Source: Candidatus Babeliales bacterium (GTDB taxonomy: Bacteria > Babelota > Babeliae > Babelales > JANWKD01). Taken from it: 64,000 nt of DNA. The DNA lies in assembly GCA_963762115.1 (NCBI GenBank), contig CAVXJH010000006.1:160001-224000 (forward strand). The letters are read 5' to 3'. Every line of letters starts with the position of its first letter. Within the stretch, counting starts at the first letter, position 1. The position numbers were made by a program, and so were the translations under genes. Under the pieces are notes generated by a model. It had not been told where the DNA came from, ran no database searches, and worked only from the letters and a program-made list of their open reading frames with translations. Shown here one piece after another: positions 7,681 through 14,035 of this stretch.

Positions 7681-9207
7681 ATGAAAAAAATTTTAATTAG
7701 TGCAAACCCTTGGCAAACAAAAATTGCCGTTACCCGTGATGATGAACTACAAAATATCTATTTTTCATCGCATGCAACAGAAAACTTAGAACGCTCATTT
7801 TTTAAAGGTACTATCATCAAGGTGCTTCCGGGTATCCAAACTGCTTTTGTTGATATTGGCCAAGAAAAAGCTGGCTTTTTACACATTTCAGAAATCGATC
7901 GTGAAATGGCTCTTCATAAAATGACAAGTACTGTTGAATTGGATGATGAAGAAACAGCGACTCCTGAACCTGAACGACAATCCTATCAAGCTATGGATAT
8001 TGGCAAAATCCTCAAAGAAGGCGAACCTATCTTAGTGCAGGTCAGCAAAGAACCGGTGTATGAAAAGGGTGCAAAACTCACAACATGCTTCACTCTACCG
8101 GGCAGATTTATCGTGCTTATGCCAAATATTCCTCGCATTGCCATTTCTAAAAAAATTGAAGAACGAGAAGAACGACAACGCTTAAAAGAAATTTTGGCTA
8201 AAAATCTTCCTGAGGGCATGGGAGCAATTATTCGAACAACCTCTGACGGAAGACAAGAAAAAGAAATTGCTCAAGATTTACACTTTTTAGTATCAACCTG
8301 GCAACAGATTGAAAAAAAATACAACGAGGCAGAGCGTAAAGAAAAAATTTATGAAGATTTGCCGCTCACGTTGCAAATTGTGCGCGATCATCTTGATGCT
8401 GATGTGGAAGAAGTTATTTCAGACAATCAACAAAATCAACAAGAAATTTATAAATTTGTAAAAAAAATAGCACCAGAATTTAGTTATAAAATTCATTTTT
8501 TTAGTGGCAATCAAGATCTTTTTGATAAATACACCATCAATCAACAACTGCAGCAGTCATTATCCGAAAAGGTACATTTACGCTCAGGTGGTTCAATTAT
8601 TATTGAAACAACTCAAGCAATGACGGTTATTGACGTGAATACCGGACGCTATATTGGTAAAAGTGACCTAGAAGAAACTATTTTAAAAACAAATCTTGAG
8701 GCAGCTGAAGAGATCACCCGACAATTGAGGCTACGCAATATCGGTGGGCTTATTGTTATTGATTTCATTGATATGTCCTCACCGGCAAATCGACAAAAGT
8801 TATTTAAAACCTTTGAAAGAATGCTCAAAGAACGTGATAAATTTCAATCAGTTGTCTTAAAAATTTCTGAATTTGGCCTTGTACAAATGACCAGAAAACG
8901 TTCAGGCAAAACGCTCATTCAAGAATTAACTGAATCATGCCAAACGTGCAAAGGCCTTGGTTATATTAAAACAATTCAAACAATCTGTTTTAATTTATTA
9001 CCAAATATTAAACAAGCATTATATGCAAATAAAGGACACAATATTCTTACCATTGAACTGCATCCAAGAACATTTGATTATATAACAAACCAAGAATATA
9101 ATTCGATTTTTTATTTTGAGAAAAATTTTGGGTGTAAGCTTATTTTGGAAACAAATGACGAAATGCCACTTGATGAATTTAAGATTGTGCGGGAAGAAAA
9201 AAATTAA
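7681..9207 (+). CDS. rng: ribonuclease G/E family
   Basis: VLPGIQTAFVDIG, VIDVNTG, QLRLRNIGGLIVIDFIDM, CxxC. Confidence 0.93.
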   Translation: MKKILISANPWQTKIAVTRDDELQNIYFSSHATENLERSFFKGTIIKVLPGIQTAFVDIGQEKAGFLHISEIDREMALHKMTSTVELDDEETATPEPERQSYQAMDIGKILKEGEPILVQVSKEPVYEKGAKLTTCFTLPGRFIVLMPNIPRIAISKKIEEREERQRLKEILAKNLPEGMGAIIRTTSDGRQEKEIAQDLHFLVSTWQQIEKKYNEAERKEKIYEDLPLTLQIVRDHLDADVEEVISDNQQNQQEIYKFVKKIAPEFSYKIHFFSGNQDLFDKYTINQQLQQSLSEKVHLRSGGSIIIETTQAMTVIDVNTGRYIGKSDLEETILKTNLEAAEEITRQLRLRNIGGLIVIDFIDMSSPANRQKLFKTFERMLKERDKFQSVVLKISEFGLVQMTRKRSGKTLIQELTESCQTCKGLGYIKTIQTICFNLLPNIKQALYANKGHNILTIELHPRTFDYITNQEYNSIFYFEKNFGCKLILETNDEMPLDEFKIVREEKN

Positions 9208-9232
9208 GATCAGCCCCGTAGAGGTGAAGATA

Positions 9233-9273
9233 GTCCAGCCGTCGCTTATCCACGCCTTCAGGCTTGGCAAGCT
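9233..9273. repeat. left part of a REP-like palindrome interrupted by IS110 (right part 10485-10495)
   Basis: Joining the flanks gives the hairpin gtcc-gccgt-gctt-cca-gcct-tc-aggc-tgg-aagc-atggc-ggac; 26/27 match to 12504-12530. Confidence 0.85.
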
Positions 9274-9350
9274 TGTATGTTAAATCAAAATGATTTTAAA
9301 GCTAAATTTTGTTAATTTATGATCAGTTGTTTTGAAATTAATTGTTTGAG

Positions 9351-9491
9351 AAGCTGATAGATCTCGTGTCAAGCTTGGTCTCAAAGGACCGTGTCATAGT
9401 TTGAGACTATCAGCTTATACAAAAATGACCTCGAACAATCACTAGAGACGTATCAAGTACATACGATCTCGCATGTCTACAAGCCAGAGGT
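9351..9491 (+). ncRNA. IS110 bridge RNA core (target- and donor-binding loops)
   Basis: Stem AAGCTGATAG/CTATCAGCTT encloses guides matching the target; stem ACCTC/GAGGT encloses guides matching the IS end junction. Confidence 0.85.
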
Positions 9492-9495
9492 ATTT

Positions 9496-10437
9496 ATGAA
9501 AAATATATCAAAAGTATTTATAGGTGTCGATATTTCAAAAAACACTTTAGATGTTTATATCCATCCAGTAGGAAAATCTTTAAAAGTATCAAACTCAGAA
9601 GTTGGAATAACGGAGATCATTAAAGAATTAGTTAAATATGATATCGAACAAATTGCATGCGAAGCAACTGGTGGGTATGAAAAATTACTTGCTCGAATAT
9701 TAAAAAAAAATTGTTATTATCTTTGGATCATCGATCCAAGAAGAATAAAAGGCTATATTGTTGCTAGTGGCTGCAAAAGCAAAACGGATAAAATTGATGC
9801 TCGAAAAATTGCTGAATTTGCTTCTAAAAATTCTCCTGATTATGAGATAATGAACAAAAGCGAAAATCAAGAAAAATTACAAGCTTTGGTCAATCGTAAA
9901 AATGACTTGGTAAAATTTTTAGTTGCCGAAAAAACAAGATCTAAACATCCATCTCATGCATTATATGCATCAAGTATAAAGAAATTTATCAAAATCTTAG
10001 AGTGCGAAATCAAATCAATTGATTTAAAGATACAAGATTTAATTCAGCAAGATGAAAAATTAAATACAAAATCAAAAATTTTGGAGTCAATTCCAGGAAT
10101 AGGCAAAACTTCAGCTGCAACATTATTATCATTCGTTCCTGAACTTGGTCAAATAAGTAATAAAAAAGTATCAGCACTCATTGGTGTTTGTCCTTATGAG
10201 AATGAAAGTGGAAGTTATAAGGGTAAAAAATTCATCAGAGGTGGAAGAACTATTCCAAGAAATATGCTTTATATGTGTGCATTAACAACTATTAAATATC
10301 ATCTCCCATTAAAGGAACTTTACGATCGTTTAATAACTTCTAAAAAACCTTTTAAAATAGCTATCGTAGCTATTATGCATAAACTTATTGTGATTGCTAA
10401 TTCTTTACTAAAAAAAGGTGAATTATGTAAAGCTTAA
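9496..10437 (+). CDS. IS110 family transposase/recombinase
   Basis: FIGVDISK, ACEATG, KTDKIDA (DEDD), SIPGIG, ESGS serine motif. Confidence 0.97.
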   Translation: MKNISKVFIGVDISKNTLDVYIHPVGKSLKVSNSEVGITEIIKELVKYDIEQIACEATGGYEKLLARILKKNCYYLWIIDPRRIKGYIVASGCKSKTDKIDARKIAEFASKNSPDYEIMNKSENQEKLQALVNRKNDLVKFLVAEKTRSKHPSHALYASSIKKFIKILECEIKSIDLKIQDLIQQDEKLNTKSKILESIPGIGKTSAATLLSFVPELGQISNKKVSALIGVCPYENESGSYKGKKFIRGGRTIPRNMLYMCALTTIKYHLPLKELYDRLITSKKPFKIAIVAIMHKLIVIANSLLKKGELCKA

Positions 10438-10543
10438 TATTGTTTAGCTTTATTAAAAAATATTTGACTTTTAACACAATCACTATGGCGGACAGCTTTC
10501 GCAGACATTTTCTTATCATAAATCATTTAAAAAAATGGCCACG

Positions 10544-10569
10544 CCAGCTGAAGCCTTGGCGAAAGCTGG
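10544..10569. repeat. REP-like hairpin overlapping the tmRNA 3' end
   Basis: CCAGCT-gaagccttggcgaa-AGCTGG; resembles the hairpins at 9233 and 12441. Confidence 0.55.
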
Positions 10570-11022
10570 TGGAGGCGATGGGAATCGAACCCATGTCCGC
10601 ATCATGTCGGACCCAAGGCGCTACATGCTTAGTTTTCGAATATACAAACGATAACCCTCAAAAACAAAAGATGAAATCGTAGGTTAGTTGCGTGATATTC
10701 TTTTGATTACCCAGCTAAGAAGTCTAACAAAAGAATCTTATCTGATATTATACGTGTCAGCTCAACTGATAAGCACGCCTCGCTGACAAGATCAAACAGA
10801 GGTATTAGCAATAGCCAACTACAGAAGATACTTCACTGAAAGCGTTTCTAAAAACGTTTTGAGCTGTAAATACCACTTCATTAGCTAATGTTTTAACTCT
10901 GGTTGATAGACCAATATTTTGATCTGCATTTATTGTTTTTGACCACTTTTTTTACGAGATCTCAGTCAAAACTCGACATGCTCCTTGCGTCATCTATAAC
11001 ACGTCGAAACCTGGACGCCCCC
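10567..11022 (-). ncRNA. ssrA: tmRNA (456 nt)
   Basis: 5' GGGGGCG pairs with 3' CGCCUCC-ACCA (G3-U), GGTTTCGAC, GTTCGATTCCC T-arm, ATAAAT-GCA resume motif. Confidence 0.95.
10805..10927 (-). other. tmRNA tag reading frame ADQNIGLSTRVKTLANEVVFTAQNVFRNAFSEVSSVVGYC*
   Basis: Translated from the GCA after ATAAAT to the first TAA. Confidence 0.75.
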
Positions 11023-11057
11023 AAAAATTTCAAAGAAATCTTAATTTTTCATTTCTA

Positions 11058-11086
11058 ATTGTAATGTTTATAGGGTGTTTTGTCAA
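11058..11086 (-). promoter_or_regulatory. sigma70 promoter of ssrA
   Basis: TTGACA-N17-TACAAT on minus strand. Confidence 0.75.
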
Positions 11087-11142
11087 GTATGCTTTAGCAA
11101 GCTACTAATTTTTTGATTAAAAAGATAGGCGCTTAATTTTAA

Positions 11143-11790
11143 CTATTTTTCTTTCTTCCGAGCTTCATAAACCTGACGGAATTTATCGAGAAAAGTTTCA
11201 TGGGACATTTTTTTTGTAATAAAAGACCAGGTAACATGATCTTCTTCATTTTTAACTTTTTTACCTTCTGTTTGCTCATCAAAAACAATATCAGAATCAA
11301 AACCATACATATTTTCAAATTTTTTGACTTGATCTGAACCTTCAAGGATAATTTCGGTTTCTATATGATCAAGATCACCTTGTTCATCAAAATAAATTTT
11401 ACTAAAAAACTCACTAAAATCTGCCAACTTAGAATGAAATTTATCAATAAAAACTGAGCAGGATTGACTTGGGATCGGTTTTTTAGTCGAATTCATTATT
11501 TGCCATTTTACATTATCATCAGGATTATCTGAAGGCCTCGTCCTAAACCTCAGCACTCCATCTTCTGTAAAACATTTCGGTTTTCGTTCAGTAAAATATT
11601 CCGATTTTCTTATAAAAGCACCTAAATAGTTACTCCATTGATATCTATCACTCCAATATAAATTATGAAAAATTAAAGCATTAGTTATTGATGAACCAGC
11701 CAACTGAAGTTTAGACCTTACCTGTTTCTCTTCCATTGCATTCATTGCTGGAACAATTAAAAAACTGAGCAAAAATAGTATTTTTTTCAT
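11143..11790 (-). CDS. secreted hypothetical protein
   Basis: MKKILFLLSFLIVPAMNA-MEEK signal peptide; start refined to 11790. Confidence 0.7.
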   Translation of the reverse strand: MKKILFLLSFLIVPAMNAMEEKQVRSKLQLAGSSITNALIFHNLYWSDRYQWSNYLGAFIRKSEYFTERKPKCFTEDGVLRFRTRPSDNPDDNVKWQIMNSTKKPIPSQSCSVFIDKFHSKLADFSEFFSKIYFDEQGDLDHIETEIILEGSDQVKKFENMYGFDSDIVFDEQTEGKKVKNEEDHVTWSFITKKMSHETFLDKFRQVYEARKKEK

Positions 11791-11865
11791 AACTAACTCA
11801 TAATATGACGGAAACATTACAACAAATATTTTATCTCAATCATTATAAAGAACACGGAATAAAAA

Positions 11866-12396
11866 ATGAAATCATCGTTATTATTTCTTTTTCTCATTAT
11901 TTTGCCAGGCTGCTCAATAAATAAACAACAAGAAACTTCTGAAAATAAAATTTCTGTTGAAGTATATGATCTTAACAAATCAACTGATATAATAATTTCA
12001 TTATTAAAAAAAGATGAGTTAAAAACAATTTTAGCCGAATCAGGTCAGGATCGAGAGGGTATAGATACATTAATTAAAAATTTTAGCCCATCAGAAATGG
12101 CTTTTGAAGCAGAAATCTTAAATCATAAAAATCCTGTAGTTTTATTATTTTATGATCCTAATGAAAATAACACTGAGATAATCGAACTATTAGCAGAGCT
12201 TGCAAAAAAATATGAAAATTCTCTAAAATTTATAAAAATTGATACAAAGAAATTATTTAGAGTTACTCAAAAAAGTGAAGTTGATATATTGCCAACCGTT
12301 ATGGTTATTCATAACCGCAATGAACTTGGCCGCCTCGAAAATCCGATAATAACAACCTTAGAAGATGAATTGCAAAAAATAATAACCGCAGATTAG
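11866..12396 (+). CDS. thioredoxin-fold lipoprotein lacking CxxC
   Basis: Lipobox LPGC; PVVLLFY...LKFIKID...LPTV. Confidence 0.7.
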   Translation: MKSSLLFLFLIILPGCSINKQQETSENKISVEVYDLNKSTDIIISLLKKDELKTILAESGQDREGIDTLIKNFSPSEMAFEAEILNHKNPVVLLFYDPNENNTEIIELLAELAKKYENSLKFIKIDTKKLFRVTQKSEVDILPTVMVIHNRNELGRLENPIITTLEDELQKIITAD

Positions 12397-12440
12397 ATTT
12401 TTTATGATTTCTGCTATAATTAAAAAATAAAATTTATTAA

Positions 12441-12544
12441 CTGGATCCTCCTTCGCTTCTCCAGGCCTTCCTACTTCGCTCCTACGGAGCTACGAAGGAT
12501 AAATCAGGCTTGGCAAGCTACGGCGGACAGGTCCCCACGATGAC
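12441..12544. repeat. nested REP-like palindromes
   Basis: GC-rich island; same hairpin as the IS110 target with a second hairpin (about 12471-12503) in its loop. Confidence 0.75.
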
Positions 12545-12574
12545 ATAACGTAGTTGTGAATACAAGGAATAATA

Positions 12575-14035
12575 ATGGCAGAACAATCTTCAGTTTTAAA
12601 TACCTACCCTGATTATGAATGCGTTATTGGCATTGAAGTTCATGTTCAATTAAACACAAAAAGTAAAATTTTTTGCTCATGTTCCAATGAACAATCAACT
12701 GAACAAAATAAAAATATCTGCCAGATATGCGCAGGATATCCAGGCGTCTTGCCCGTATTAAATAAACAGGTTGTTCATAATGGAATTATGGCTGGGCTGG
12801 CAACACATTCAACGATTTCTCCCGTTTCGGAATTTGCTCGAAAGCATTATTTTTATCCTGATCTTCCAAAAAATTATCAAGTGACTCAAAGCGATCGGCC
12901 AATTTGTCTTGATGGGTATATTCCTATCACCCTAGAAGATGGCACCATAAAAAATGTTCGCCTTATTCGTATTCACATGGAAGAAGATGCCGGAAAAAAT
13001 ATTCATGCTCCGACAACAAATGAAAGTTTCGTAGATCTCAATCGTACCGGCACCCCACTTCTTGAAATTGTCAGTCACCCCGATATTGCCAATGCAGCCG
13101 AAGCAAAAGCATATTTAAAAGCATTACGTCTTATTGTTATGTATTTGCGCATCTCAACAGGCAACATGCAAGAAGGTTCATTCAGAGCGGACACCAATAT
13201 TTCTGTGCGCAAAAAGGGTGATCCAAAATTGGGTACTCGAGCTGAATTAAAAAATATCAACTCATTCAAATTTATTGGTGATGCTATTGAATATGAAATT
13301 CAACGGCAAATAGAATTGCTCGAATCAGGCCAAAAAGTCCGTCAAGAGACACGTTTATGGGATGTTAAGGAGCAATGCTCAAAGCCGATGCGCTCCAAAG
13401 AAGAAGCGGCAGATTATCGTTATTTTGAAGATCCTGATTTGCCTCTTGTTGAAATTACTGAGGAAATGATTTCGCGCGTCAAAGAAATAATGCCAGAACT
13501 ACCCCAACAACGCTTCGAGCGCTATGTTAATATGCTTGGCATTTCGGCTTATGAAGCAGACGTGTTAATTGAAGATTTGGAATTGTGCATGTATTTCGAA
13601 GAAGCATTAAAACATACCTCCAGCAAACAACTCATTAACTGGGTGTTACGCGATATCATGGGTCTTATCAAAAATGAAAAAATTTCGTTAGCTGAATGCA
13701 AAATAACTCCTGAAAAATTAGCACAATTAGTTGCTTTAATTGATCAGGGCATTATTAATAACCGTACAGCACAAGAAATCTTTGCCATTATTGCTAAAAC
13801 AGGCCAAAATCCTGAAGAAGTTGTCAAAGAAAAAGGCTTACAACAAATTGGTTCAACAGAAGAATTAGAAAAAATTGTCAAAGAAATTATTGCGCAAAAT
13901 CCTGGTAACGTTGCTGAATATAAGGCGGGTAAAGAAAAATTATTTGGCTTCTTTGTTGGGCAAGCAATGAGTAAGTCACAAGGAAAAGCGAATCCTAAGA
14001 TTCTTCAAGAATTGTTGAAAAAGTATTTACAATAA
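12575..14035 (+). CDS. gatB: Asp/Glu-tRNA amidotransferase subunit B
   Basis: IGIEVHVQL, YFYPDLPKNYQ, HMEEDAGK, DYRYF. Confidence 0.98.
   Translation: MAEQSSVLNTYPDYECVIGIEVHVQLNTKSKIFCSCSNEQSTEQNKNICQICAGYPGVLPVLNKQVVHNGIMAGLATHSTISPVSEFARKHYFYPDLPKNYQVTQSDRPICLDGYIPITLEDGTIKNVRLIRIHMEEDAGKNIHAPTTNESFVDLNRTGTPLLEIVSHPDIANAAEAKAYLKALRLIVMYLRISTGNMQEGSFRADTNISVRKKGDPKLGTRAELKNINSFKFIGDAIEYEIQRQIELLESGQKVRQETRLWDVKEQCSKPMRSKEEAADYRYFEDPDLPLVEITEEMISRVKEIMPELPQQRFERYVNMLGISAYEADVLIEDLELCMYFEEALKHTSSKQLINWVLRDIMGLIKNEKISLAECKITPEKLAQLVALIDQGIINNRTAQEIFAIIAKTGQNPEEVVKEKGLQQIGSTEELEKIVKEIIAQNPGNVAEYKAGKEKLFGFFVGQAMSKSQGKANPKILQELLKKYLQ

Follow-up and report, generated by a model that had tools for sequence, protein, structure and literature searches.

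The closest described systems to the element analysed here are IS621 (PMC11208160, PMC11208158) and ISCro4/IS622. Our element has in common with them a recombinase with the domain pair PF01548 and PF02371, a DEDD site and a catalytic Ser, and a long left and a short right end. Further shared features are a predicted two-loop RNA carrying left and right target guides (LTG, RTG) and left and right donor guides (LDG, RDG), a CT core, handshake bases, a putative promoter split over the junction, a palindromic repeat as target, the right donor arm TGTAT and one natural mismatch of the LTG. Pairing of a handshake base with a target base is described for IS621 in PMC11208158, and the bridge-RNA system has already been mapped on 5,511 target pairs. 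A further study of IS621 (10.64898/2026.08.31.748434) describes half-matches, which comprise the core and one arm only. Since the RTG of IS621 spans only 4 bp, sites matching in the right arm alone (RT-only) were omitted from its genome classification.

Three other systems are of interest for comparison. ISPpu10 (10.64898/2026.03.19.712850) likewise inserts at a CT core within a palindromic intergenic repeat. The IS1111 group has in common with our element a DEDD recombinase and a subterminal inverted repeat, which is perfect over 7 bp here. The GTAG-family REPs, as portrayed in PMC3733652, are short, intergenic, imperfect stem-loops like the host repeat of our element, which carries CTAC (GTAG on the other strand) in 6 of 14 copies.

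Structure, copies and recombinase of the element

Dependentiae is a phylum of intracellular protist parasites. The window, i.e., the whole stretch of 64,000 nucleotides that was analysed, stems from a Candidatus Babeliales genome and harbors an IS110-group insertion sequence (Table 1). Its neighbours are the end of an RNase E/G gene on one side and the tmRNA gene on the other. Excision of 9274-10484 in silico restores TGGCAAG-CT-ATGGC, and joining of the ends gives ACAATCA-CT-TGTA. All nine segments quoted in the original prediction were re-read in the window, and both their coordinates and their sequences are correct; new relative to this prediction are the four other copies, a putative promoter split over the junction and an inner hairpin in each loop. 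A second GC-rich palindromic repeat (10537-10570) separates the element from the tmRNA gene, whose 3' end faces it, and related stretches occur elsewhere in the genome.

Table 1. Features of the IS110-group element and its surroundings (positions in the window).
Feature	Position	Strand	Details
Left part of host palindromic repeat	9236..9273	+	left target TGGCAAG 9265-9271; CT core 9272-9273
IS110-group insertion sequence	9274..10484	+	1,211 bp, one CT core included; 5 copies
Left terminus	9274..9284	+	right donor arm TGTAT 9274-9278; predicted -10 box TATGTT 9276-9281; subterminal inverted-repeat arm TGTTAAA 9278-9284
Predicted target-binding loop	9351..9416	+	outer stem 9351-9360/9407-9416
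Target loop, inner parts		+	LTG 9367-9375; inner hairpin 9377-9390 (9377-9380/9387-9390); RTG 9393-9399; handshake UU 9400-9401
Predicted donor-binding loop	9428..9491	+	closing stem 9428-9432/9487-9491
Donor loop, inner parts		+	LDG 9435-9443; inner hairpin 9445-9470 (9445-9452/9462-9470); RDG 9478-9483; handshake CC 9484-9485
IS110 recombinase, 313 aa	9496..10437	+	PF01548 and PF02371; NF033542 above cut-off
Right end	10438..10484	+	predicted -35 box TTGACT 10464-10469; inverted-repeat arm TTTAACA 10470-10476
Right end, donor part	10438..10484	+	left donor ACAATCA 10476-10482; CT core 10483-10484
Right part of host repeat	10485..10500	+	right target ATGGC 10485-10489
tmRNA gene, neighbour outside the element	10567..11022	-	RF00023, 148 bits
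Partial repeat copy, unoccupied	12504..12530	+	CT-ACGGC, one extra mismatch to RTG

The 1.53-Mb genome (95% complete) contains five full-length copies of 1,211 bp each, and as they differ by only 1-2 SNPs, a recent spread is suggested. Four of them reside in a common palindromic repeat at TGGCAAG-CT-ATGGC and have different outer flanks. The fifth copy is inserted at GCCTTTG-CT-ATGAT, inside a gene scoring best as an IS481 transposase (E 3e-14 over the N-terminal part, which is under the full-length cut-off). In silico excision of this copy restored the reading frame of the gene, and the empty site, 40 nt long and containing a single CT, is found unaltered in three uninterrupted alleles of the gene. 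These alleles fix the element ends and the single CT core independently of the guides. A single core in the empty target and a core at both element ends (five copies, three empty alleles) are characteristic of the IS110 group, and the same holds true for the non-coding ends, which measure 222 nt (left) and 47 nt (right) with the RNA situated in the left one. Left ends of 207-243 nt were found in all 16 related elements examined. The element occurs in four sequencing runs, all of them DNA, with no RNA run among those listed, and no circle joint was seen in their contigs; neither observation has a bearing on activity.

Four copies of the IS481-type element are present (C6 about 253000-256100; C5 85127-86319; C3 197475-198823 and 347542-348878), one of which is interrupted by the IS110 element. 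Together with five PF01797 genes, they amount to a large number of mobile elements for a genome of 1.5 Mb. The one PF01797 gene that was scanned is of the IS200 type and reached 32.5 bits with the RAYT model (cut-off 80).

The recombinase scored 190 bits with NF033542, the NCBIfam model of IS110 RNA-guided transposases (cut-off 140), and can be aligned to the chains of IS621 (E 1e-32) and ISCro4, for both of which structures have been solved. Residues D12, E56, D98, D101 and S238 align with the catalytic residues of IS621 named in PMC11208158, and all five are invariant in 43 of 43 aligned proteins, a set drawn from among 120 of 1,169 recombinase matches. By its protein, the element is a member of the IS110 group of the IS110 family, and the recombinase is intact, as had been claimed, with the Pfam pair, the NF033542 match, the DEDD site and the catalytic Ser all present. 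Its 313 residues had also been called compact. This was dropped as a special feature: the family ranges from about 300 to 460 aa, IS621 has 326 aa (PMC11208160, PMC11208158), and a 201-aa member has been reported (10.64898/2026.08.14.744561). Named relatives of the recombinase as well as of GatB belong to Ca. Babeliales or Dependentiae, which makes this phylum the likely one for the host.

Among the five copies, only that in the window has a G at 9568, resulting in Val25 instead of Ile, and in the C6 copy at 303523-304733 a change at the position corresponding to 10277 replaces Cys261, which is nearly invariant, by Tyr. The sequence GAGGT (9487-9491), which forms the 3' arm of the donor-loop closing stem, also resembles the ribosome-binding site of the recombinase gene; the ATG follows after 4 nt, and the aligned relatives have this sequence as well. 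Judging from this overlap, folding of the bridge RNA could block translation of the recombinase.

Predicted bridge RNA and its agreement with donors and targets

A bridge-RNA layout of the IS621 type had been proposed for the left end, and the two loops, the four guides and a fold that covaries in 16 relatives support it. The outer stems of the target and donor loops are exact inverted repeats. The LTG matches its target at 8 of 9 positions and the LDG its donor at 9 of 9, while the RTG forms six Watson-Crick pairs and one G-U pair and the RDG matches at 6 of 6. Shuffling the left end 20,000 times never produced all four matches together; single guide matches arose by chance at frequencies of 0.001, 0.014, 0.07 and 0.15. 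When folded separately, the target loop had a z-score of -3.9 and the donor loop one of about -2, and in the full-length minimum-energy fold the closing stem of the donor loop was not formed. RNAalifold applied to 16 aligned elements recovered the two-loop layout typical of the IS110 group. For the 32 stem pairs, 96.3% of the cells pair and 11 pairs show two-sided (compensatory) changes, values not reached in 500 shuffles; the slide control of the fold is inflated because the structure was derived from the same sequences. An Rfam scan of 8000-14000 detected the tmRNA only and no bridge-RNA family.

The joined ends create the sequence TTGACT, 17 nt, TATGTT and a perfect 7-bp inverted repeat around the donor. 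The TTGACT motif is present in 14 of 15 readable right ends of related elements, whereas conservation of the -10 box is circular, since this box served as search anchor. A linear promoter scan returned 8 sites compared to 5.8 expected and is not informative. The junction promoter and the inverted repeat were considered as novelties and dropped; similar junctions are contained in the published donor set of PMC11208160.

Of the 261 genomes of the phylum, 32 had a recombinase match, a partial metagenome scan yielded 80 loci, and a scan of genome contigs one locus, a duplicate of L004. Scoring covered 25 loci with at least 55% identity. Two of these are views of a single fragment and another is a duplicate, and these three were removed; in two more, a flank was missing. 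Six of the 80 metagenome loci, those at 57-70% identity, were scored. The final set comprised 24 insertions with 15 distinct guide sets and included the four other copies of our genome, and copies within this set are not independent. The left guide matched its own flank at 4.42 of 7 positions on average compared to 2.50 after permutation, and the right guide at 4.24 of 5 compared to 1.97; none of 20,000 permutations reached either value, although these figures overstate the case, as we are dealing with kindred elements and the flanks were already known when the rule for the guide register was defined. Alignment of left ends and a search for guide-flank covariation had been named as a check of the original prediction. 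Its outcome is positive for both target arms as well as for the fold with its compensatory pairs.

Agreement was strongest close to the core. Position -1 matched in 24 of 24 insertions, +1 to +3 in 22-23, and -7 to -5 in only 8-14. At +2, the flank agreed with the guide in 22 of 24 insertions (T in 10, C in 7, A in 5); the relatives L005, L046 and L048, for example, have guides reading C and flanks with CT-AC. The first donor-loop handshake base complements target position -1 in all 24 insertions, with three states represented, as in IS110-group bridge RNAs, whereas the target-loop handshake base is uninformative because it is nearly invariant. The donor and the donor loop are nearly fixed and change together, from ACAATCA to ACAATTA in two elements, and with this variant included the LDG equals the left donor in 25 of 26 rows.

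The left arm matched at no more than 3 of 7 positions without gaps in six of the 24 insertions, all six of which had a right-arm match of at least 4 of 5; the reverse was seen in one insertion. A one-base bulge improves the left match in L007 and L038, but not in L008 and L046. Alternatively, the uneven left-arm match could stem from decay of the flanks following insertion, from rearranged repeats or from an error in the register. In L010, the right guide matched at only 2 of 5 positions and flanking sequence is duplicated. A 26-nt stretch is repeated upstream and at the right flank of this element, which suggests that its ends result from a rearrangement.

Several relatives show further peculiarities. 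In L005, the left end has its first 18 nt duplicated in tandem. L008 has a right guide for CT-TCGTC, is inserted at CT-TCGTC and has an empty CT-ATGGC repeat just downstream, a mirror image of the situation in the window. G110 (L003, L032, L033, L034), from the same genus, carries two elements of the clade with different target guides and a common donor, so that their RNAs could cross-mobilise each other. At about 41-42% identity, L014, L041, L042, L020 and L013 have right ends reading ACAATCG-TT rather than CT, and in some of these the left junctions and guides disagree on the CT core; they are possible natural core variants, judging from their ends. Loci at 40-44% identity were read by eye and left out of the counts, and some among the loci listed have guide-like matches, others a left donor and core at odds with CT.

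Target choice in the genome and the fifth insertion

With the boundaries, the catalytic residues, the two-loop fold and the agreement and co-change of guides and flanks established here, we are highly confident that this is an intact five-copy IS110-group element whose predicted IS621-type bridge RNA likely steers the recombinase to sites matching the target loop. Transcription, circles and catalysis are transferred by analogy from IS621 (PMC11208160, PMC11208158). Excision would thus join the ends to ACAATCA-CT-TGTAT, and the promoter built at the junction would drive transcription of the bridge RNA. The donor loop would pair with the junction and the target loop with TGGCAAG-CT-ATGGC, and the DEDD and Ser sites would exchange strands at the CT core, assisted by handshake pairs. 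The presence of five copies fits the copy-type route proposed in 10.64898/2026.08.31.748434, without proving it.

To compare filled with empty sites, all five copies were removed and every CT site was scored against both target guides. The four repeat insertions occupied ranks 1-4 of 148,293 CT sites (10 Watson-Crick pairs and one wobble of 12). One site in C3 with 10 of 12 Watson-Crick pairs and four sites with 9 Watson-Crick pairs and two wobbles are empty despite their good match. The repeat itself was counted in 14 copies matching GGCTTGGCAAG-CT with at most one mismatch; its tag reads CTAC in six, CTTC in four and CTAT in four, and the copy in the window forms a stem-loop. All four CT-AT copies are filled and all ten others (six CT-AC, four CT-TC) are empty (Fisher p = 0.001). 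The suggestion that a CTAC instead of CTAT mismatch keeps the repeat at 12504-12530 empty is thereby supported, and the +2 base follows the guide throughout most of the clade as described above. Because the right guide reads T at +2, the element would have filled every CT-AT copy and left CT-AC and CT-TC empty. Inspection of the other copies, likewise proposed at the outset, gave a divided result: four copies lie in the guide-matched repeat and one outside it, at a site matched by the right guide only.

The CT-AT pattern might have arisen independently of target choice, either by duplication of a unit of repeat plus element or by a C to T change at or after insertion. In line with this, ATGGCGGA is found on the right side of all four filled repeats, C3 contains an empty CT-ACGGC repeat that is nearly a twin of the one in the window, empty CT-AT copies do not remain in this genome, and CT-AC is commoner than empty CT-AT in the phylum, occurring in 11 compared to 2 of 261 genomes. 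Yet the four insertions have different left flanks and different distal right flanks, the ATG of the fifth site is already present in the three empty alleles, C-reading guides of L005, L046 and L048 go with CT-AC flanks, and two other genomes, G005 and G006 (96% and 66% complete), have empty CT-AT repeats. No recombinase homologue was found in these two genomes, so the CT-AT variant can predate insertion, which makes guide-directed choice the simplest reading and an origin by duplication or base change very improbable. Structure could also contribute, with the hairpin of the host repeat as a second determinant that selects sites together with guide pairing. Such a mechanism has been reported for ISPpu10 (10.64898/2026.03.19.712850), the restored target in the window folds better than 199 of 200 shuffles, and the five well-matched sites outside the repeat are empty. 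However, the hairpin arm is present in all ten empty repeat copies, the fifth insertion is in coding sequence, and only 3 of 21 restored targets of the clade fold better than 95% of shuffles (mononucleotide, 48-nt windows), so that conservation of a target hairpin across the clade was not supported. We consider such a dual requirement unlikely and retain guide pairing as the basis of target choice.

A close relative of the element was detected in run X3 (second study) in the same repeat, as a left end with A9396G and G9368T in its target guides. This left end was aligned to window positions 9243-9577. A9396G makes the right guide read CTAC; the right-flank base at +2 falls too close to an alignment end to be read, and the two ends of this relative are on separate contigs with a depth below 5.

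The fifth insertion, in the IS481-type gene, likely represents a natural right-arm-only half-match, judging from the pairing of its flanks, and probably occurred via this arm. Its right arm is within the top 0.33% of CT sites. Its left arm offers one Watson-Crick pair and one wobble of 7, which is background, as 95% of G-CT sites do equally well ungapped. Allowing one bulge raises the left arm to four Watson-Crick pairs and one wobble of 7, and tolerance to target insertions is mentioned for IS621; the event might therefore be a bulged full match, or else guide-independent or an assembly error. Against these alternatives, which together appear clearly less probable than a half-match, 29% of G-CT sites reach the bulged left score, and a contig of run X1 has the identical right junction, although X1, possibly the source sample itself, is not independent.

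A right-arm-only insertion would be in keeping with a more general but tentative idea, to which we give less credence than its negation: in this Dependentiae clade, the target may be read mainly by the 7-nt right guide and the core-adjacent bases, with a relaxed distal left arm. Since mismatches were poorly tolerated at each of the nine positions in screens of IS621 (PMC11208160, PMC11208158), relaxation of the left arm would truly set this clade apart. Combined with a 7-nt right guide, it would allow natural insertions that match in the right arm alone, a half-match class inaccessible to scoring in IS621. If this holds, related elements would divide the variants of one host repeat among themselves by a single guide base (+2), and their guides would drift toward unfilled repeat variants, as hinted at by the close relative with the right guide CTAC.

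Comparison with known systems

Our literature search, which covered largely open papers, retrieved no paper joining Dependentiae or the donor with IS110, and the donor junction is absent from the searchable supplement parts of PMC11208160; the clade may already have been catalogued. What is added is a recently spread clade of bridge recombinases from a phylum of intracellular protist parasites. Its 15 naturally different target guides on a nearly constant donor provide an orthologue panel for recombinase screens, and the element is likely usable as a natural test of target choice by guides. It offers two natural bench tests, namely single-base discrimination at +2 (4 filled, 10 empty) and a right-arm-only candidate off-target with empty control alleles.

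With respect to the host repeat, the target had been described as REP-like. This stands for a REP-like palindromic repeat in four of the five copies, whereas membership in the GTAG REPs is not established: the copy number is low for the subtype, the tag differs in 8 of 14 copies, and no RAYT was found, the one PF01797 gene scanned being of the IS200 type. The IS1111 group was rejected as an assignment, as its members have a long RNA-bearing right end; here the right end measures 47 nt and it is the left end that contains the guide RNA, and the inverted repeat does not reach the 11-13 bp that are usual in this group (PMC11187229). ISPpu10 differs in that its target hairpin is conserved across its homologues, in contrast to 3 of 21 in this clade.

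From IS621, the element is distant in sequence (E 1e-32), its recombinase has 313 instead of 326 aa, and both the repeat and the host phylum differ. Compared to the IS621 donor ACAGTAT.CT.TGTAT, 4 of 14 positions differ, with the left arm being ACAATCA here and ACAGTAT in IS621. The RTG comprises 7 nt here and 4 nt in IS621, longer RTGs having been noted in other orthologues, and left-arm matching at natural sites looks looser here. In relation to the IS621 half-matches, the fifth copy is one event and a candidate for RT-only insertion in nature, for which the guide spans 7 nt and three alleles represent the empty state. In summary, the element is a real, well-supported and ordinary member of the known RNA-guided IS110 family, and it leaves the bridge-RNA model unchanged.
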